A DNA stretch of 42,984 nt, taken from assembly GCA_044229845.1 (NCBI GenBank), contig JBGASG010000019.1, forward strand, positions 1-42,984, in the 5' to 3' direction. Position numbers and translations under genes: made by a program. Below the pieces are notes generated by a model, which worked only from the letters and a program-made list of their open reading frames with translations, was not told the origin of the DNA and ran no database searches. Origin of the DNA: Candidatus Obscuribacteraceae bacterium. Lineage in GTDB: Bacteria; Cyanobacteriota; Vampirovibrionia; Obscuribacterales; Obscuribacteraceae. Shown in pieces: positions 4,512 to 14,761 of the stretch (positions are counted from its first letter, which is position 1; every line of letters begins with the position of its first letter).

Positions 4512-5099
4512 TTACTCGCCCAAATCGCTCAGTGGTGCGGTCAGTGACTCTTTCAAGATACGGTTTCGGGTTGCCTGGGACGACTTGATCAAGGTGCCAA
4601 TCGCCGGTGCGAATGCCCTGGCGCAGCCGCCATGTCCTAAAGTTTCGCAGACAATCTGCGAAACTTCATTGGTCAATTCGTTCATATTGCGGCAGTCGGC
4701 GTGCGACTCCATGATCTGCATCGCTTCCGGTGTGGCAATCAGGTAGTCGGTGGCGTGCAATGCCAGCTTCAGGTAATTCATCAGCCAGGCCGGCATCAGT
4801 TCGCCGCCCTGGTCGATGGCATCCAGGTGGATGTAGATGCAGAGCAGGCGTTTAACCGCCGGCAAAAACTCATCTTCGGTGTACTGTTTGCTCGCCACAA
4901 CGCGCATTTGCTCGGTCTGCAGTTGCGGTGCAGCATTGCGCAGAGCCAAAAGAGCCTGCTTGAGCTGATTGGAGATCGCCACTCCCATCCGCGATACGTA
5001 GTAATGGACGCGCCGATACTTCTCCGTGCGCTCCTTCGGATTGTGCTCCGGACGGGCTCGGAATGCAGTTGCTTGCGAGTCGCTTTTCACTACGGTCAT
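4512..5099 (-). CDS. Hypothetical protein (helical)
   Basis: 195-aa ORF with natural-looking composition; no motif recognised. Confidence 0.7.
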   Translation of the reverse strand: MTVVKSDSQATAFRARPEHNPKERTEKYRRVHYYVSRMGVAISNQLKQALLALRNAAPQLQTEQMRVVASKQYTEDEFLPAVKRLLCIYIHLDAIDQGGELMPAWLMNYLKLALHATDYLIATPEAMQIMESHADCRNMNELTNEVSQIVCETLGHGGCARAFAPAIGTLIKSSQATRNRILKESLTAPLSDLGE

Positions 5100-5264
5100 T
5101 TCAGTCGGTCTATTGCCCAGATATTTAGCTATATGCCCAACTCATGAGCTTTCCAAGCCATGCAGACAGAAGCCTGAAAGGCTCGACCCGGCGCCAAAAA
5201 GCGGCACTCCTGGCTGGTTTGCGGGATTCGGTCCAACAAGAAGTCTATTTTACAGGAGGGGCGT

Positions 5265-5906
5265 CTATTTTGCCGCTTTGTAGAAGGCTGTGGCGGCGAC
5301 TGTCACAAAGACGGTACTGGCCAGCTTCTGGAATACGGCTTCCGGGCGCTTAATTTTATGGTCATCCAGCTTCACCGGAAACTTCGCTTTGATTTGCAGC
5401 AGGTCGCAGCCCGGCATTTTCTGTTTGTCGGCGCACTTTTTGACATAGAAGATATCGACGGGCACCTGCTTCTTGACGGTGACGCCATGAATGGTGAACT
5501 CACCGTCGGCAGTAACCGAAAGCTTTTGCCCGGGCTTGATGACGCCGGTGCTGATTTTGCTCAATTTGAAGGTGGCGTTGGGATATTTAGCTGTCTCCAA
5601 AAAGTTGTCGCGCATGTGCTCGTTGCGCAGTGGAATGCCTGTGTCAATGGACGCCAGCGGTACCTCGAAATGAGCGGTGATCGGGGTTTTGCTCAAATCG
5701 AGCGATTCATCGACGACCACTTCTCCTTTCACATCGTTTGTGTGACCGACGATCACTTCAATCGGCGCGTCGGAATTGAAGCTTATCGAGTCTCGTTTTT
5801 CCGGGTCACCAACCGCGAAAGTGATGGGTTTGGCCGAAACGGGGACGGTGGCGGCAGCATTGGCTACCAGACAGGCTAGAGCGACGATCAGACTTTGCTT
5901 GCGCAT
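5265..5906 (-). CDS. YceI family exported lipid/polyisoprenoid-binding protein
   Basis: Signal peptide MRKQSLIVALACL..VSA; SIDTGIPLRNEHMR..FLETAKYPNATF; GEFTIHGVT; ATG 4 nt after the upstream stop. Confidence 0.92.
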   Translation of the reverse strand: MRKQSLIVALACLVANAAATVPVSAKPITFAVGDPEKRDSISFNSDAPIEVIVGHTNDVKGEVVVDESLDLSKTPITAHFEVPLASIDTGIPLRNEHMRDNFLETAKYPNATFKLSKISTGVIKPGQKLSVTADGEFTIHGVTVKKQVPVDIFYVKKCADKQKMPGCDLLQIKAKFPVKLDDHKIKRPEAVFQKLASTVFVTVAATAFYKAAK

Positions 5907-5910
5907 TTTT

Positions 5911-6768
5911 CTACTCCACAACTTTTGAACCGACGAGAACCATTTGCTCCTGCAACTCTTCGATAGAGTCCAGGAAGTCTATGACAACTTTCTGTACATT
6001 TGCCTGTTTTGAGATTGATACCACAATTGGTATCAATTCCTGATAGCTGACTGTACCCTGAGAGGCGCGCTCAATCAGGGCTGCCGAAGCCTCGCCCAGT
6101 TCCACAAAACGACAGGAATGCGTGTTTGGGTGGCGATAGATAGCTACGATTGTTTCTTCCTGAGCGATCTTGCGCGCCAGCTTGCCGCCCGCTTCCAAAA
6201 TCTCCACGATCTCAGGAATCGGGTACTGGTATCGTCTGATCGTCAAGCTGGGATTGACTATTGGTGCCAGTTTCGGAAACTGCTCGGGACTGGAAAGCGT
6301 TTGATGCTCAGCGACATTGATCAGCACATCTTCTTCCATTTTCTCCAGCTCAATCCATTCGTAGTGAGCCAGTTCGGCGATGAAGGGTAGTCTCTTCAAA
6401 TAGCGCTGCCCGCGCTCTGTTTCTTGAAAATACTGGGAAAACCGCGCACAGAGCCGATTGAAGTTGTGGTGATTGGGTGGGAAGTGTTTCAGGTAGTCAT
6501 CGACGGTTTCTTCCCACTCATCGCCGATCAATTGCTGGCAATAGGGATATATCGATGCCATCACATCGTGATGACCGAAATTCAGCAAACTACCATAGAG
6601 CCGCACTCCGTCCTTGCTGATGCTTTGCAGCAGTTCGGGAGAAATGTCTTTGAGCGACGCCGGAGCGCGGTCTGGTTTGGCTCCACTTAGAAACCAGCGG
6701 CGCGCTTCATCATCCATCCACAACGTGCTGAGGGTTCTCTCAATGTCACGCAGAGAGGGCGCGGACAT
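5911..6768 (-). CDS. DUF2063 / HvfC-BufC-type MNIO partner (peptide-recognition) protein
   Basis: GVRLY..L, YPYCQQLIG.EW, F.QY, ELAHYEWIE, YQYPI, AIYRHP; ATG at 6768 with AAGGAGG RBS; overlaps the end of the DUF692 gene. Confidence 0.85.
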   Translation of the reverse strand: MSAPSLRDIERTLSTLWMDDEARRWFLSGAKPDRAPASLKDISPELLQSISKDGVRLYGSLLNFGHHDVMASIYPYCQQLIGDEWEETVDDYLKHFPPNHHNFNRLCARFSQYFQETERGQRYLKRLPFIAELAHYEWIELEKMEEDVLINVAEHQTLSSPEQFPKLAPIVNPSLTIRRYQYPIPEIVEILEAGGKLARKIAQEETIVAIYRHPNTHSCRFVELGEASAALIERASQGTVSYQELIPIVVSISKQANVQKVVIDFLDSIEELQEQMVLVGSKVVE

Positions 6769-7708
6769 CTCGCCCTCCTTTGCCGGCTGACTGTTCTGAA
6801 TGCCGCTTCTGCTGCTCGTCTTGATCGGACTTGAGTAAGCGTGTCTTTTGCACTTGCAATTCTGGCTGGGCTGCAGCGACGATTTTTTTGATCGTGGCAA
6901 TTTCGCCGAGCAGCTCTTCGAATTCAGGAAACTGCTGATCGCGCTCCAGCAAAATGGCGTGCACTTTTGTTTTGCGCAAAACGTGTTCGAGCAGCTGGAA
7001 CACCGGTTCAATAACGGCAGCGCCATGTGTGTCGATCACGTAGTCATCGATTTTCTTGTGCCCGGCGATGTGAATCTGCACCACGCGGTCGAGAGGCAGA
7101 GCATCTATGTATTTGTAGGGGTCAAACTTGTGATTGAGCGAATTCACGTAGACGTTATTTACGTCTAAAAGCAGCCCGCAATCAGCTTCTTCAACAACCT
7201 GCGTGATAAATTCCTCTTCCGGCATTTCGCTGCCGGGCATTTGCATATAGAACGAGATATTTTCGAGAAGAAACGGTCGCTGCGTGCGGTCTTGCACTCT
7301 TTTCGCTCGTTCGGCGATGTGATGGACGGCTTCCTTCGTGAGCGGCACCGGCAGCAGATCGTGCATGTAGGTGCCACCATTCGTGGTGAAGCAGAGGTGG
7401 TCGCTCCACCAGGGAGAATCGATGCGTTCCAGCAACTCTTTGATCTCTGTCAGGTAAAGTTCGGACAGATCGTCGGTGGAGCCGATGGAGAGATTGACGC
7501 CATGAGAGACAAGGGGGAAGTTCGAGGCAGCTTCTTCAAGCCGCTCTCGAGCTCTTCCCCCGAGTCCCATGTAGTTTTCCGGAACTATTTCCAGCCAGTC
7601 TATGCGTCCGGCGTTGTCGAATGTTTCGTCAACGAGTTCTCTTCGCAAACCAAGCCCAGTGCCCAGAACGGGCAGCTGTTTCTTGATCTTGAGGAACTCA
7701 TCCGGCAT
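6746..7708 (-). CDS. DUF692 family multinuclear non-heme iron oxidase (MNIO; HvfB/BufB/MbnB-like)
   Basis: GLGLR, WLEIVPENY, HGVNLSIG, WWSDHL, HDLLP, LENIS.Y, LLLDVNNVYVN, QIHIAGH, IDTHG, LLERD. Confidence 0.96.
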   Translation of the reverse strand: MPDEFLKIKKQLPVLGTGLGLRRELVDETFDNAGRIDWLEIVPENYMGLGGRARERLEEAASNFPLVSHGVNLSIGSTDDLSELYLTEIKELLERIDSPWWSDHLCFTTNGGTYMHDLLPVPLTKEAVHHIAERAKRVQDRTQRPFLLENISFYMQMPGSEMPEEEFITQVVEEADCGLLLDVNNVYVNSLNHKFDPYKYIDALPLDRVVQIHIAGHKKIDDYVIDTHGAAVIEPVFQLLEHVLRKTKVHAILLERDQQFPEFEELLGEIATIKKIVAAAQPELQVQKTRLLKSDQDEQQKRHSEQSAGKGGRDVRALSA

Positions 7709-7744
7709 GCATTTGTTGATTTGGCTGGCTTCTACTTCGGAATC

Positions 7745-8158
7745 TTACTTGGTTTCTTTGCTCTTGCAGGAGCCTTCTTTGCCCTTGCAGGAACCTTCTT
7801 TGCCCTTTTCTTTGGACTTGCAGGAGCCTTCTTTGCCCTTGCAGGAGCCTTCTTTACCCTTGCAGGAGCCTTCTTTACCCTTGCAGGAGCCTTCTTTACC
7901 CTTGCAGGAGCCTTCTTTACCCTTGCAGGAGCCTTCTTTACCCTTGCAGGAGCCTTCTTTGCCCTTGCAGGAGCCTTCTTTGCCCTTACACGAGGCTTCT
8001 TTGCCCTTCTTCTTGGCTTCTTTCTTGGACTCTGTCTTGGTCGCTTTGTCGGACTTGGCGTCGGTAGCTTCATCGGCAGCTATGGCTGCGCCATGAAAAC
8101 CGATGCCGAGAGCGGCGACTAAGGCAGCAGCGAGTTGCGCTTTTGTAAGATTGGCCAT
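7745..8158 (-). CDS. Exported Cys-rich repeat RiPP precursor, 11 x KGKE(G/A)SC
   Basis: AGGAG RBS; signal peptide ending AIA|A; eleven Cys-terminated heptads; immediately upstream of DUF692. Confidence 0.9.
   Translation of the reverse strand: MANLTKAQLAAALVAALGIGFHGAAIAADEATDAKSDKATKTESKKEAKKKGKEASCKGKEGSCKGKEGSCKGKEGSCKGKEGSCKGKEGSCKGKEGSCKGKEGSCKGKEGSCKSKEKGKEGSCKGKEGSCKSKETK
7766..8008 (-). repeat. 21-bp coding tandem repeat (+ strand unit GCAGGAGCCTTCTTT(A/G)CCCTT)
   Basis: Near-identical units seen directly; 9 contiguous, then a 12-nt interruption, then 2 more. Confidence 0.97.
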
Positions 8159-8435
8159 CTGAAATCTCCTAAAACCTAACTACTTGGACATTTGCTCATT
8201 GCGGCCACTGACAACCGCGCTTAATGAGATGTATGCAATGTTATTCGACTACATTTAATCAGATGGACACACGAACGTTAGCTCCGTGTTAAATCCTCGT
8301 ATTCGGTCACAGTGCCTTATTTCCGGTGCTCAATAGTTCGTTACGGGAAGACAGTTGTCACCCTTCCCATCCTTATATATGAGGTGATTTTGTGTAGTCC
8401 TGCGTTGGCAAGCGGCGATTTTTGATGGGCGCGGC

Positions 8436-8810
8436 TTACTTCGCCTTGGCTTTGGTGGCATCGGCCTTCGCATCGGCTTTGGCTTTGGTGGTGTCGGCCT
8501 TTGCGTCAGCCTTAGCTTTGGTGGCGTCGGCCTTCGCATCGGCTTTGGCTTTGGTGGCATCGGCCTTGGCGTCAGCCTTCTTCTTGTCGCGATTTTTTGC
8601 CGCCTCAGCGCCTTTTTCATCGGTGCCGCAAGAGCCTTTGCCGCACGCGCTGTCTTTGCCGCCGGCGGCGGGCTTTGTCTTATCAGCCACTTTCAATGCC
8701 GGTGTTTTGGCGGTGGAGTCCGGCGCTGCCACTGCGGCAGTAGCGCTGGTGACGATACCGGCTGCTGCAATTATGGACAGCAGGTCCGACTGAGAAAGTC
8801 TAGTTTTCAT
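8436..8810 (-). CDS. Second exported candidate RiPP precursor (SACGKGSCG core) with C-terminal 11-mer Lys/Ala/Asp repeats
   Basis: AAGGAG RBS 6 nt before ATG 8810; signal peptide ..ATAAVA|A; two Cys in DSACGKGSCG; 4 x ADAKAD(A/T)TKAK. Confidence 0.8.
   Translation of the reverse strand: MKTRLSQSDLLSIIAAAGIVTSATAAVAAPDSTAKTPALKVADKTKPAAGGKDSACGKGSCGTDEKGAEAAKNRDKKKADAKADATKAKADAKADATKAKADAKADTTKAKADAKADATKAKAK
8445..8576 (-). repeat. 33-bp degenerate coding tandem repeat x4
   Basis: Encodes ADAKADATKAK x4 with synonymous variation. Confidence 0.9.
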
Positions 8811-8948
8811 GGACATCTCCTTGTGCTCTGACTAGTATCAAATACGGTGTCGCCCGTTCTACATATTATGCAAACACAGTTATCGGACATTTGTATATAC
8901 GATCGATAGCTATGTTCTTTTCTAAATCACCAATTGTCTATATGCCAG

Positions 8949-8987
8949 AAAAAATTACAAGGTCACGGACTGAGCCGTGACCTTGTA
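8949..8987 (-). terminator. Rho-independent terminator of the H1-like gene
   Basis: Perfect 13-bp stem TACAAGGTCACGG/CCGTGACCTTGTA followed on the minus strand by a U-run. Confidence 0.85.
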
Positions 8988-9017: not shown

Positions 9018-9647
9018 TTAGCCTTCGGTGCTCCCGCCGTTCATCCCGGCTGTCGCTGCGGCTGCTGCTTTTTTCGTTCCGCGTTTGGCGCCCGCTTTTT
9101 TGGTGGTGGTGCGCTTTTTGGCTCCGCCAGCTTTTTTGGTGGCCTTACGGGCTGTTCCGCTTTTCTTAGCCGTTGTTGCTTTTTTAGCAGCAGGCTTTTT
9201 GGCGGTCGACTTTTTAGCGGTCGACTTCTTAGCGGTGGTTTTGCGAGCCGCAGCTTTTTTCGCTGGAGCCTTGGCGGCTGTAGCTTTTTTAGCGGCGGGC
9301 TTGCGGGTCGTTTTCTTGGCGCCAGTGGCTTTTTTAGCGGTAGATTTGCGAGCAGTGCTCTTCTTCGCTGGTTTCGCTGCAGCAGCTTTTTTCGCGGCTG
9401 GTTTGCGAGTGGTCTTCTTGGCGGTAGTAGCCTTCTTAGCAGTAGACTTCTTAGCCGTTGCTTTCTTCGCAGCAGGCTTAGCTGCGGCGGTCGTTGTTTT
9501 CTTCTTGGTAGTACGCTTGGCTGCCGCACGTTTCGGCGACTTCTTAGCGGCTTTCGCCGGTCCGCCCATCGACTCGTTCATGACGGCCGAAGCCGTTGTC
9601 GATTTCTTTTTGGCGGCTTTCCGTTTTCTGGGCCGTTTCGCTGCCAT
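9018..9647 (-). CDS. Histone H1-like (Hc2/AlgP-type) Lys/Ala/Thr-rich DNA-binding protein
   Basis: AAGGAGG RBS before ATG 9647; dominated by KKSTA/KKATA/KPAAKK pentapeptide-like repeats; no globular domain. Confidence 0.85.
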   Translation of the reverse strand: MAAKRPRKRKAAKKKSTTASAVMNESMGGPAKAAKKSPKRAAAKRTTKKKTTTAAAKPAAKKATAKKSTAKKATTAKKTTRKPAAKKAAAAKPAKKSTARKSTAKKATGAKKTTRKPAAKKATAAKAPAKKAAARKTTAKKSTAKKSTAKKPAAKKATTAKKSGTARKATKKAGGAKKRTTTKKAGAKRGTKKAAAAATAGMNGGSTEG

Positions 9648-10127
9648 TGAATGTTCCTCCTTGATATTTGTGGCGCACAGAGTATGTCTGCAATGCATAG
9701 GCTTTGCAGGTGCATCGCCGCTAGGGCTATGTGATTTTCTGTGCCACCACTTTCAGTGAGAGTTGTTTTTACTCTCGTTGATCACACCACACATGAAATA
9801 CATTATTTTATATGCCCGGAAATTGCAAGAGCACAACTTGGTCGATCCGAGGTCTCCAGCGATTGTTTTGGCAGTCATCGGCTGTGGTGTCACGCTCTGC
9901 GATCCGCTATTCATGCGGATTCGCGCGTGCGATCTGCGCTAATCGACCGGCGAAAATGGCTCCGAAAAATTTTCATCTTTGGGCAAAAAATTTTTTCAGG
10001 GGTCTTTACGAACTTCCCCTCTGATCCGCCGGCCTGAAATGGTAGTTTTCGGGTTGTGCAGTGGTTGCGAGCAGGCACCATCAGTAGTGGCAAATCGGTC
10101 GCGCCTGATTTGCCTAAGTCTGAGTCT

Positions 10128-11188: not shown

Positions 11189-14100
11189 TTAGAACCACTC
11201 GGACGCACTTTCACACCTGGCTACTCCGTCCGAGTCTCGACAGAGCGAGTACATTTCTTTTGCTTCCCGCCAGCGTTTGAGAAGTTCGTAATATTCTGCC
11301 GCCTTTTTCCACTGTTTGCAGCGTTTGAAACATTCTGCCGCTTCTTCGAACCTGGACGACTGCGCGTAGAGATCTCCGGCCAGCTGAAACTTTCTTGCAC
11401 GCTCAAAACATTCAGCGGCTTTTCCGAACATCATGGCTGATCTGTAGCGATCTCCGGCTTTGGACCACTCAGAGAGGTCCTCGTACACCGCTCCTGCCAG
11501 ATCTGCGCGCCGTTGTGATTCGGCCCATTCGGCAAGTTGGCGTCTGAGATCTGGAATCTGCTCTCGATTTTTGAATGCCGGTATGCCTCGGGCAACCTCG
11601 AGCGCCAGATCTCTTTGAGCACTGAGCAAATACAGGCGCGCTGCTTCCAATCGCTTGCCTAATCGCGCCAGCAGCGCTGCTGCGGCTGGCAGGTTGGCCG
11701 CCTGCAGGTACTTTTGTGCAGCTTCTTCAAATCGCTCCAGTTTTTCCAGACAGTAGGCTGCTTCGTTGTTGCACGCAGCTTGCAAGTAATACTGCAGCGC
11801 CTGCTCATAGTTGCTCAGCCGCTCATAACAATTCGCAATGCGTCGGGGCTCACCGGCTTCCAGGCGCAAGGTCAGCGCGTTTTGCCAATCGCCCCCGGTT
11901 TCGAAGCAAGCGGCCGCTCTGGACTGATCGCCGGCATTCAGGTAGGCGCCGGCTGCATTGATCCAATCTTGAGCCGACTCGTAAGTTTCTCCAGCAGCAG
12001 CAAAGTCTTCAGCATATTCTCGTGCGCGGGCTGCTTGTGAAAGTAGCCCGGCGCGCAAAAACATCTCTGCGGCTTGTTCGAAGCAGTGTGCCTTTTCAAA
12101 ACAACGTGCGGCATCGGACCACGCTGAGACGTCGACGAATAATTCTGCCGCCTGCTCGTATTGCTCTGCCTGTTCAAAACTTTGCGCAGCTTCCTTCTTT
12201 TCGTCGGCCCTGAGAAACATCTCAGCTGCCTGTTCAAATTCTTCCGCGGCACTAAGCACTGCAGCGGCGTCCGACCAGCTCTCACCGGCCTGAAAATGAT
12301 GGGCGGCATTTTGCCAGGACTGTGCGCGTGCAAAACATCGTGCTGCGTCCAGAGATTCGTTCGCTTGCGCGAAGCATTCTGCGGCCCGCAACCATTGGTG
12401 GTGCTGCTCGTAAATCTGGGCAGCTTGCAGATGCCGGCCTGCCAGTGCATAACAACGCGCGCATTCCAGTGGTGCGCCATCGGCTTCGAAAGCCTCTGCT
12501 GCGCCTATAAAATCACCTACGGCCTCCAGACATTGACCGAGCGCGTTGAAGAGGTTCGTTTGCCTTATATAAGGAATAGCGTGTTCGAAGTCTTTTATCT
12601 CTTGATAAGCCAGTCCGAGATTGCGCCAGTCGCGGCATTTTTCCCACAGGCGCAGGGCGATCTCTCGAGGACGTTTCTGTCCGGTGCGCTGAAACTGCTT
12701 CCAGGCTTCCTGGGCGCGCAGTCGCTCCAGAAAGATGACGTGATAGTTGGGCAGATATTTTTCTCGCTGATCGAAAAAATCCTGCAGCGCCCTTCTAGAG
12801 TCATCGACGATCTGAAAGAAACTGCAAAACAGTTCGAACTTATCGCCTAACAATTCTTTTGCTCGCTGCCAATCTTCTGAGGTGAGAAACACCAGGAGAC
12901 TCTGACGAGCGCGGGTGACCGCCATATACCAGAGGTCGAAAAGGCGCGCTGTGGCGGCGTTTTCGATATCGACCGGCGAACTGAAGAGCCGGTAGATGAT
13001 GACGTCTTCGAACTCCATACCTTTTGCTGCATGCAGCGACAGTAAAAATGCCGGGCCCTCACTGGCAGTGTTGTCTGCTTCTTTGATACGCCGCATGTAG
13101 TGTTCGTCTTCGCAGAGAATCACCAGGGGCGAAGTGATTGTCAAAGCGCCTTCACCCGCATCAGGAGCGAGTGTGCGCAAAAACGCCGTGAACTCTTTTT
13201 CTTCACCGATAACCAGAGTCGGTTTTCTTCCCCTGATTGCGGGCGGATCATCTGCCGCGGCCGAATCAGGCGAAAGTTGACGGAAAAATTCTCCGAGCGC
13301 AAAAATCTCACGCGTATTGCGAAAGTTTTGATGCAGTTGAATCTTCTCAAATGCGCTGGGGCGGTGGATTTTGCGCAAAATTCGTTCGACGTAGCTGTCC
13401 ACTTCTTGCCAGCGAAACCCGGAGCGCGAAATGTTCTGGTTGCGATCGCCGGACAAAAATGGATACCCAGGATTATTTGCTTGTCGGATGCAATTGTTTT
13501 CCCAGAAAAGCAAAAGCGATTTCCACTCCAGCTCCGTGAAGTCTTGCAGCTCGTCAATCACTATCCATGCCGGTTCTGTTTGATCTGAGAGTGCGGCTCG
13601 ATTTTTTAGCGAGTCATAGCAGAAGCGAATCAGGTCTGCTTCATCCTTATGGTTGAATACCGCCAACTTTTGCTCATAGGCGGCGAATATTTCGAGAATC
13701 TCTTCAAAGTTGTCAGGCGCGCTGCCGTAGCCTTTGAGAATTCGACGGAATTCCTCTGGAGAGCTCGCCAGTTGGTCGCTTCCGGGTACAAACCGACCTT
13801 TCAAAATTGAATAGAAATATCCGTAGATATCTTCGGCGTTAAAAGCGCGCGACCAGCGCGGTCGTGAGTTGAGAATCTCGTCGATGTGCCTGATGCTCAT
13901 ATCGCGATTCACCCAGCTCCATTGAGTTGGAGCATCGGCAATTTGTTTGCGCAGGTAGTGGCGGCAAAATTCCAGATAGGAGTAGACGTGCAGCCGCTTC
14001 CGCGGTCTGTCCTGATCTGTGGACTCGTCGTCGGAAGCATTAGTCAGATTGACTGCATAACAGCGACAGACGCAGGCAAGCTCTTCCTGATATGTGAAAA

Positions 14101-14761
14101 GTAGAACGTCGCCGGGCAATTGCGATTCGTAGAGGTTGAGTGCGTGAAACAGTGCCAGCGTGGTTTTGCCGGTACCGGCAGATCCCTGCACCAGAAAGGC
14201 TCGATCGCTTTTCCCGAGCAATTCCTGCTGTTGAGGAGTGAGGCGCAGATACCGATCGATGTTCGGTTCGAAAGCGTAAAACTTCTGGGGTTCGCTGAAT
14301 ATTTGCTCAGGGATTCTGAACAGAATCAAACCATCGACCAGTGCTGAGTCACTTTTTTCTTCTTCACTTAAAGTGCGCGGCTCGATCGCGGCGCCGTCCA
14401 ACTCTACCCGTTGCAGATTGGCACTGGTCTCGGGCGTGTCGAAAAAGAGTGCCGGAACGACAGACCTTTCCACTTTCTCGTATGCATCATCGTGATGATC
14501 GACATCCCAGATGACCAGCGATGTAGACTGATCGTCGGCCGACATTGAGAAGATCACTCTTATGTCTACGTTCAGGCGCGCCGAATAGACCTTCCCGCGG
14601 CTTGTGTGAAGTTTCTCCACACGCAAGCCGGGAATGTCGAACTGTCCCGATTTGAGTTTATGAAGCAGTTGCCAAAATTTACGGTTGTAATTTTGGCCCA
14701 GTAGAGTATGTAACGCGACACGCACGCGTGGGGCAATATAGACATGATCGAAACCTACCAT
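11189..14761 (-). CDS. RelE-like N-domain + UvrD/SF1 helicase + C-terminal TPR/SNAP-like helical repeats
   Basis: N-term GLRVEKL..VYSARLNVDIRVI..DVDHHDDAY; GSAGTGKT, IDELQD, GDRNQNI, QNFRN, HAAKGMEF, YMAVTRAR; about 480 aa of ~13-residue AAExF..A repeats. Confidence 0.88.
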   Translation of the reverse strand: MVGFDHVYIAPRVRVALHTLLGQNYNRKFWQLLHKLKSGQFDIPGLRVEKLHTSRGKVYSARLNVDIRVIFSMSADDQSTSLVIWDVDHHDDAYEKVERSVVPALFFDTPETSANLQRVELDGAAIEPRTLSEEEKSDSALVDGLILFRIPEQIFSEPQKFYAFEPNIDRYLRLTPQQQELLGKSDRAFLVQGSAGTGKTTLALFHALNLYESQLPGDVLLFTYQEELACVCRCYAVNLTNASDDESTDQDRPRKRLHVYSYLEFCRHYLRKQIADAPTQWSWVNRDMSIRHIDEILNSRPRWSRAFNAEDIYGYFYSILKGRFVPGSDQLASSPEEFRRILKGYGSAPDNFEEILEIFAAYEQKLAVFNHKDEADLIRFCYDSLKNRAALSDQTEPAWIVIDELQDFTELEWKSLLLFWENNCIRQANNPGYPFLSGDRNQNISRSGFRWQEVDSYVERILRKIHRPSAFEKIQLHQNFRNTREIFALGEFFRQLSPDSAAADDPPAIRGRKPTLVIGEEKEFTAFLRTLAPDAGEGALTITSPLVILCEDEHYMRRIKEADNTASEGPAFLLSLHAAKGMEFEDVIIYRLFSSPVDIENAATARLFDLWYMAVTRARQSLLVFLTSEDWQRAKELLGDKFELFCSFFQIVDDSRRALQDFFDQREKYLPNYHVIFLERLRAQEAWKQFQRTGQKRPREIALRLWEKCRDWRNLGLAYQEIKDFEHAIPYIRQTNLFNALGQCLEAVGDFIGAAEAFEADGAPLECARCYALAGRHLQAAQIYEQHHQWLRAAECFAQANESLDAARCFARAQSWQNAAHHFQAGESWSDAAAVLSAAEEFEQAAEMFLRADEKKEAAQSFEQAEQYEQAAELFVDVSAWSDAARCFEKAHCFEQAAEMFLRAGLLSQAARAREYAEDFAAAGETYESAQDWINAAGAYLNAGDQSRAAACFETGGDWQNALTLRLEAGEPRRIANCYERLSNYEQALQYYLQAACNNEAAYCLEKLERFEEAAQKYLQAANLPAAAALLARLGKRLEAARLYLLSAQRDLALEVARGIPAFKNREQIPDLRRQLAEWAESQRRADLAGAVYEDLSEWSKAGDRYRSAMMFGKAAECFERARKFQLAGDLYAQSSRFEEAAECFKRCKQWKKAAEYYELLKRWREAKEMYSLCRDSDGVARCESASEWF

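Follow-up and report, generated by a model that had tools for sequence, protein, structure and literature searches.

The locus described here raises the question of what a single pair of peptide-modifying enzymes does with two unlike cysteine-rich precursors and an exported beta-barrel encoded in the same gene cluster. It lies on contig JBGASG010000019.1 (assembly GCA_044229845.1) of a Candidatus Obscuribacteraceae bacterium, a cyanobacterial relative that does not photosynthesise; of this contig a stretch of 42,984 nucleotides was analysed as a whole (the window). Five co-oriented genes had been proposed in a preliminary description of this DNA, and open reading frames (ORFs) on the minus strand bore them out in the order given there: precursor B, precursor A, an MNIO (DUF692) enzyme, a DUF2063 partner and YceI. 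Taken together, the sequence comparisons make it probable that the cluster is a captophorin-type system of ribosomally synthesised and post-translationally modified peptides with two substrates, serving periplasmic copper/oxidant buffering. Beyond the described systems go the precursor A family with its own upstream box, the apparent handling of precursors B and A by one enzyme, and the co-inheritance of precursor B with YceI.

The enzyme pair

The three Pfam families put forward in the preliminary description were all recovered in hidden Markov model searches. The MNIO maturase (6746-7708, minus strand, 320 aa) matched PF05114 with 348 bits. Its DUF2063/PME1 partner (5911-6768, minus strand, 285 aa) matched PF09836 with 33.3 bits, above the cut-off, PF22106 with 25.6 bits, just below it, and the HvfC model with 88 bits (cut-off 142). 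The exported beta-barrel of YceI fold (5265-5906, minus strand, 213 aa) matched PF04264 with 80 bits. The MNIO and DUF2063 genes overlap by 23 nt and the gap between DUF2063 and YceI is 4 nt, in agreement with the earlier layout; 36 nt separate the end of precursor A from MNIO, and 277 nt lie between precursors B and A.

With the NCBIfam models, the MNIO scored 315.5 bits for HvfB (cut-off 360) and 309.6 bits for BufB (cut-off 310); the enzymes of two relatives reached 306 and 316 bits with the BufB model. Scores for other subfamilies were low (ApyH 127; ChrH 69, cut-off 600; MbnB 48). The nearest solved structure was 3BWW (E 3e-56), with which the iron-site motifs align and are intact. Arg-Arg at positions 22-23 and the catalytic Asp257 are features shared with oxazolin-type enzymes. 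A PME1/DUF2063 gene lies directly downstream of this HvfB/BufB-cluster MNIO and cysteine-containing precursors with putative Sec signal peptides lie upstream, and by these profile scores and this gene order the enzyme pair is classed as captophorin (oxazolin/bufferin) type. The earlier proposal of a related metallophore or metal-buffer system is supported; the locus appears to be a variant within the captophorins and not a separate system. In a quickly built tree of 78 MNIOs, the enzyme grouped with those of Cys-Gly-type precursors, apart from four local bufferin-2-like enzymes that served as outgroup; the tree took in no characterised enzyme, and placement among the known subfamilies is by profile scores.

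The preliminary description had staked its proposal on the clade of the enzyme and on the co-occurrence of the precursors with DUF692 in relatives, and on both counts it was supported: the scores lie beside HvfB/BufB and far from ApyH, ChrH and MbnB, and the precursors accompany DUF692. An MNIO orthologue (E<=1e-95) was found in 91 of the 107 genomes of the order, including 36 of the 39 high-quality ones. Since it is widespread in the order and precursor A stands directly upstream in most genomes that have it, the cluster is not a chance arrangement. The closest relatives of the locus belong to Ca. Obscuribacterales/Melainabacteria, the lineage that had been presumed. The remark that no characterised example was known from this lineage needs correcting, as MelA1/MelH of Ca. 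Melainabacteria has been studied (PMC13056109). That system shares with the locus the class of organisms and a peptide accompanied by an MNIO (modification here being predicted); it differs in subfamily (ChrH) and in a C-terminal CPACGMG motif, which the locus precursors lack.

Two precursor classes, probably served by one enzyme

Precursor A (7745-8158, minus strand, ORF of 137 aa) consists of a conserved signal peptide, a Lys/Glu spacer and 11 Ser-Cys-Lys units, mostly in the form of a Gly-Lys-Glu-Gly-Ser-Cys-Lys heptad. Nine of its 11 cysteines follow each other at exactly seven residues (57-113) and are encoded on a 21-nt tandem repeat. Signal peptides of both precursors were judged by eye from a basic start, a hydrophobic stretch and an AxA site. 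Lys follows Cys at 138 of 142 cysteines in 25 genus representatives, and the number of cysteines ranges from 2 to 11 across 79 homologues. A profile of precursor A matched 84 of 401 genomes of the class, every one within the order; among 109 protein matches to the family, the named ones are Obscuribacterales or uncultured Cyanobacteriota. AlphaFold predicted disorder apart from the signal helix (pLDDT, a per-residue confidence score, 47.5). The bufferin and oxazolin precursor models of Pfam and NCBIfam gave no match. By these sequence comparisons, precursor A is a new family. In the supplement of Gadgil et al., the six-letter unit that precedes Lys in the A heptad has 68 occurrences, with Gly as the next residue in the row displayed, and a single one with Lys-Gly, in an unrelated bufferin-2 peptide; the exact core of precursor B was absent. 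This table is based on RefSeq, and its silence on Obscuribacterales genomes thus carries little weight. A hit of the TigB model on precursor A (20 bits, cut-off 70) was dismissed as compositional, and a tblastn match on contig C13 of the own genome was not a Ser-Cys-Lys gene. The best ESM Atlas match (0.87) fell in low-complexity clusters and is taken as a lead only.

Precursor B (8436-8816, minus strand, ORF of 126 aa) has a signal peptide, a single Cys-Gly-x-Gly-x-Cys-Gly pair (Cys58, Cys63) to which a conserved Asp-x-Lys-Gly-Ala-x-Ala-Ala tail belongs, and after these an 11-residue Lys/Ala/Asp repeat that lacks Cys. The core was invariant in 17/17 and 20/20 aligned homologues, and Gly follows each of 20 cysteines in nine genus representatives. 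No NCBIfam precursor model matched precursor B itself; the homologue in L184 passed the KCGExKCG_twice model. As a correction to the different core motif put forward earlier, the core of B is closely related to the EGKCG double repeat. A leader motif common to A and B was rejected, as the B leaders fell between the 39th and 96th percentiles of 720 starts that resemble signal peptides (that of the window at the 39th).

Compared with the oxazolin, fontiphorin and gonophorin systems (HvfABC, FonABC; PMC13097082, PMC12452194), the locus has the same order of precursor, MNIO and PME1 genes, signal peptides and low-complexity cysteine repeats, and precursor B shares the C-x4-C double unit of EGKCG captophorins with Gly after each Cys. 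It differs from them by Lys after Cys in the seven-residue repeat of A, by Gln258 instead of Phe after the catalytic Asp, and by the presence of YceI and the lack of DoxX at the locus. HvfA models matched neither A nor B at E<=1 and the HvfB and HvfC scores stayed under their cut-offs, and the locus was not placed in the Oxazolin / Buf_EGKCG family. With bufferin 2 (BufA2B2C2 of Caulobacter vibrioides; PMC11626156) the locus shares Cys-Lys dyads, Sec export, the MNIO and DUF2063 genes and the lack of DoxX. Bufferin 2, however, is a folded peptide of 6/12 cysteines, whereas A is a predicted disordered heptad repeat with 2-11 cysteines; Gln replaces the Asp after the catalytic Asp, and the local bufferin-2-like MNIOs form a separate branch. 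Neither DUF2282 nor a folded 6/12-Cys precursor (bufferin 1/2) was matched among the locus precursors with Pfam or NCBIfam.

One MNIO seems, judging from the gene sets, to serve both a Cys-Lys (A) and a Cys-Gly (B) substrate class. The enzymes are kept with A as the only precursor at 42 loci and with Cys-Gly precursors alone in other orders. In 4 of the 109 A-family matches, the B core and 3-4 Cys-Lys units stand on one chain; two paralogous MNIO-DUF2063-YceI operons (L163, L164) have a single precursor each that carries both B-type and A-type motifs; and the precursor of a high-GC metagenome locus (L229) loosely combines B-like and A-like units. Tandem precursor genes as such are already known for bufferins (PMC12452194). 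At the position after the catalytic Asp, which was assigned to specificity by Gadgil et al., FonB of the Lys-Cys group has Phe and Cys-Lys enzymes have Asp. All A-associated enzymes with a readable motif have Gln there. In other orders, where the precursors are exclusively of Cys-Gly type, the enzymes carry Leu, Thr, Ser, Gly or Phe, and two paralogues with fused precursors have Asp. The enzyme of the locus appears to accept each of the two substrate classes that have been published, and it does so with Gln as a third type of residue at this position.

Upstream of precursor A, a conserved box was found (8275-8296, minus strand), a putative activator site with the consensus GATTTTACA-N6-TAAC-like, which is an imperfect direct repeat with an 11-bp period. 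By this appearance it resembles OmpR/PhoB-type sites. A position weight matrix (PWM) was built from 20-21 genus representatives and applied at a threshold of at least 12 bits. Of 79 A genes, 73 have the box upstream, and so do 53 of the 59 that lay outside the seed set; it was present at none of 33 B genes and in one of 79 shuffles. The box of the window was the best-scoring site in the whole own genome. A -10-like hexamer follows at a fixed distance, TA(G/C)(G/C)AT in most relatives; its counterpart in the window, a putative -10 hexamer placed 3' of the box by alignment of upstream regions (8238-8243, minus strand), received no call in a sigma-70 scan. Seven further sites of at least 14 bits in the own genome all lacked the -10 element and gave no clue to a regulon. 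The box was not found before precursors of other orders or paralogous operons; three matches lay elsewhere in L287 and L295. Precursor B had no shared upstream motif among nine genus representatives. Because A has its own conserved box, A, MNIO, partner and YceI probably form one regulated transcription unit and B a second. A terminator of intrinsic type belonging to the histone-like gene upstream of B (8956-8987, minus strand, 13-pair stem and T run) marks the upstream border of the cluster, so that B requires a promoter of its own. Contigs of four RNA libraries from four studies span parts of 5100-7745, some of them bridging gene junctions; they carry neither strand nor level and were not counted as evidence of expression.

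Stand-alone A copies were fetched from other genomes in seven cases. Five are divergent from an operon of MsrBA, an extracytoplasmic function (ECF) sigma factor and an anti-sigma factor; the sixth is joined to a fasciclin domain, and the seventh lies behind a TetR gene. In the five (L296:3406-3804, L297:3491-3970, L298, L301:3610-4008 and L303:3398-3769) the divergent genes encode an MsrBA lipoprotein, the ECF sigma factor and a zf-HC2 anti-sigma factor, and DUF1223 comes next in two of them. An A-type signal peptide with Cys-Lys repeats fused to a fasciclin domain was seen in L300:3271-3996 and in proteins P0275, P0277 and P0279. The paralogous operon L164 has MsrA and an ECF sigma factor upstream. 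The stand-alone copies point, indirectly, to an oxidative or envelope-stress context. Precursor A would be a stress peptide close to the core gene set, controlled through a box of its own, in an order that is uncultured but frequent in sludge, water and soil.

Co-inheritance of precursor B and YceI

Of 101 loci examined, 75 were counted, in which A was present and both flanks were readable; the other 26 were paralogues without A, a locus in which A was missed by the pattern (L140), or had a flank cut by a contig end. A precursor B call in L140 was spurious and was dropped. Precursor B and YceI were both present at 33 of the 75 loci and both missing at 42, with no discordant case. As they sit at opposite ends of the operon, a single deletion cannot take both. 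Two pairs of loci, L064/L065, which are of the same genus, and L141/L128, show clean double indels between flanking genes that agree on either side. Profile searches of the 107 genomes, with profiles built from loci having both genes, recovered YceI in 38 (at 1e-67 or better, a wide gap in score to the remainder, with nothing at 1e-25) and B in 37; a further B match, of 13 residues, had E 0.0098. Genome-wide, 36 genomes had both, 68 neither and three were discordant, all three with contig breaks inside the operon. YceI thus tracks precursor B and not the enzymes.

In other orders, 17 of 23 loci with a YceI orthologue have the order Cys-Gly precursor, MNIO, (partner), YceI; at three (L274, L275 and L295) YceI comes immediately after the precursor and any MNIO is more than 4 kb away, and one locus is cut. 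YceI accordingly follows a Cys-Gly precursor at 20 of 22 readable loci; most of the 23 belong to a single family and do not count as independent. Two DoxX queries found no DoxX-like protein at the 101 and 23 loci, nor elsewhere in the own genome, which agrees with the earlier observation that DoxX is missing here. That YceI stands in its place did not hold in this simple form, since 42 of the 75 loci have neither gene and the presence of YceI goes with that of B.

YceI belongs to its family by PF04264 and by a predicted beta-barrel fold. The model (pLDDT 80) matched E. coli YceI and its kin in Foldseek with E 1e-11 at 17-21% identity. Like the YceI/BcnA lipocalins (E. coli YceI, TT1927b, BcnA), the protein is exported and predicted to form an eight-stranded barrel. 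Unlike canonical YceI (L187/L190), it has the N-terminal His-Ser/Lys-His-Met motif replaced, and it belongs to a distinct subfamily: in 20 aligned orthologues a Cys pair (158, 167) and the stretch Arg-Asn-Glu-His-Met-Arg are both invariant. The locus also differs from those of YceI/BcnA in lacking a cytochrome b561 partner gene and in the linkage or fusion of YceI to Cys-rich peptides. A complex prediction of YceI (26-213) with the precursor B core (48-82) scored 0.00 and bears neither way.

By a script count, Cys-rich repeat tails of Asn-Pro-Cys or Cys-Gly type with up to 31 cysteines occur on 10 of the 150 best representatives of the YceI subfamily, and two clusters of such proteins are labelled Poribacteria. 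The proteins are P0017, P0023, P0027, P0031, P0033, P0087, P0038, P0041, P0044 and P0054 (also P0020), and their sequences possibly represent an undescribed class of metal-binding YceI. An association of these fusions with MNIO genes was unsupported in the four loci retrieved (L193-L195, L204), which are on short contigs.

In the literature searched, to which subscription papers and bioRxiv supplements did not belong, no paper was found that joins YceI with DUF692 or MNIO or that treats this cluster, and neither YceI, Melainabacteria nor Obscuribacter occurs in the available supplements of two MNIO landscape papers. The co-inheritance hints at an undescribed partnership of B and YceI.

Proposed mechanism, rival explanations and other loci

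In the proposed mechanism, the MNIO-DUF2063 complex would act in the cytoplasm and oxidise cysteines to 5-thiooxazole, with a loss of 4 Da per residue, at up to 11 sites in A and at two in B; in bufferins this conversion precedes Sec export (PMC11626156). Both peptides would then be exported by Sec and cleaved. Mature A would act as a disordered, high-capacity metal sponge of variable length and would be expressed, along with the enzymes, from a dedicated regulated promoter. These steps jointly, from 5-thiooxazoles on A and B to the A sponge, are considered quite likely; formation of 5-thiooxazole and copper buffering by the cluster are, from its sequence relationships, likely. Mature B would form a single two-ring site, and its conserved tail may be handled by the co-exported YceI barrel, either as a binding partner or as a quinone- or lipid-carrying redox helper that keeps thiols or bound Cu reduced. 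For such functional coupling of B and YceI the chances are about even. Historically, a class-wide ancestor of the form Cys-Gly precursor, MNIO, DUF2063 and YceI may have been joined by A in the Obscuribacterales, after which B and YceI would have been lost repeatedly as a pair.

A wider and rather tentative proposal is that this YceI subfamily serves Cys-derived metal-binding peptides in the periplasm, as their dedicated receptor or redox chaperone, and would link bound copper to the membrane quinone pool. The peptides would be separate, like B, or fused, like the Asn-Pro-Cys and Cys-Gly tails on proteins of Poribacteria and others. One MNIO would mature two peptides that divide the labour, A as a regulated sponge for bulk binding and B as a two-ring shuttle that can be recycled. 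If true, this would fill in the downstream step that the account of captophorin action lacks, and it would give a YceI barrel its first function related to peptides. On the fate of the metal-loaded captophorin in the periplasm and the role of the fourth gene, the locus offers a natural comparison of presence and absence (B and YceI against neither), even inside one genus, with a small number of genes suited to expression in E. coli.

The observations that weigh against these readings are best taken together with the rival explanations. YceI may be merely a co-regulated envelope-stress lipocalin that handles lipid peroxyl radicals or quinones as BcnA does; B and YceI would then have no joint action and be ancestral remnants, dispensable after A was gained, that streamlined lineages shed in parallel, and the captophorin core would be unchanged. 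BcnA-type YceI proteins limit lipid peroxidation, and the known YceI proteins bind hydrophobic ligands (PMC9113575); bufferins function without DoxX, which is usually the fourth gene (PMC11626156). Orphan YceI genes stand behind ileS at two of the 22 readable loci of other orders (L292, L294). Cys-Gly precursors with MNIO also occur without YceI, in L177 and in family f4 (L176, L179), where no YceI match was found in 30 genomes. B and YceI each change seven times on the MNIO tree, and well-supported branches hold only two pairs of changes that are independent (p 0.5 in a sign test). Among distant relatives of YceI, an MNIO was present at one of 80 metagenome loci, many of them short (L229, in the order precursor, MNIO, DUF2063, YceI, ECF sigma, anti-sigma), and many neighbours are unrelated, such as pdxJ-like, DUF899 and dnaA genes. 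A mere remnant status fits poorly, however, with the lack of any locus among the 75 that retains just one of the two genes from opposite ends of the operon, with the precursor-YceI pairs that survive away from MNIO, and with the YceI-Cys-tail fusions, one of which (L193:3265-4107) comes after YHS and CxxC genes. This explanation is considered possible but on balance doubtful.

Another product than 5-thiooxazole on the Ser-Cys-Lys heptad, or another target than copper (Ag, Au, Zn, Hg, Ni, reactive chlorine or oxygen), is regarded as unlikely. New residues flank the cysteines and Gln is at the specificity site, the enzyme lies under both the HvfB and BufB equivalog cut-offs (one relative passes BufB), stand-alone A copies have Msr genes as neighbours, and no copper-resistance gene was found in the window. 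All characterised MNIO-PME1 clusters, however, install 5-thiooxazole and generally bind Cu (PMC13097082, PMC11626156), and the active-site motifs agree with 3BWW.

That only B is a true substrate, with A an unmodified Cys-rich thiol or oxidant sink or metallothionein-like peptide in promoter-proximal position, is quite unlikely: it would suit the Cys-Gly-type position of the enzyme in the tree, the A copies with MsrBA or fasciclin away from any MNIO, and FonBC, which leaves Cys followed by a charged residue unprocessed, Cys-Lys motifs included (so that modification of A needs a changed specificity and handling of both precursors is not trivial), but intact MNIO and partner persist with A as sole precursor at 42 of the 75 loci, Gln has replaced Phe at the specificity site, and genomes with stand-alone A encode an MNIO elsewhere, so that modification in trans is possible.

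Around the cluster, the neighbouring genes are housekeeping genes (thyA, folA, aat and a deaminase). Downstream, a co-oriented gene (4512-5099) encodes a 195-aa protein without Pfam or NCBIfam match, which recurs at several relatives' loci with or without YceI. Upstream, a Lys/Ala-rich histone H1-like protein with a weak HC2 match (9018-9698) is a conserved neighbour in relatives. Further away, a 1190-aa protein (11189-14761) has an N-terminal segment that looks RelE-like by eye, UvrD helicase domains and a long tail of TPR/clathrin-type repeats.

The own genome encodes a second MNIO-DUF2063 pair (L143, C1:906100-914100), 57% identical, which follows a 478-aa ORF without Pfam match. It is also preceded by a small exported peptide with a Cys-x-Tyr-Pro-Cys-Gly-Cys-His motif, which was seen in L153 too. 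On contig C14, near 67900-69650, a distant MNIO adjoins a membrane protein with a Gly/Cys-rich C-terminal tail, which resembles the TIGR04222 type. In L148, L153, L154, L155, L139 and L174, the open frames that contain MNIO paralogues are about 590-840 aa long and are probably fusions of MNIO and partner. In family f8 (L172:4456-4635, L173), a gene of about 600 aa precedes the MNIO and only a tiny overlapping Lys-Cys-Gly ORF is present there; in one genome of this family (G051), a full precursor with YceI lies about 25 kb from the MNIO.

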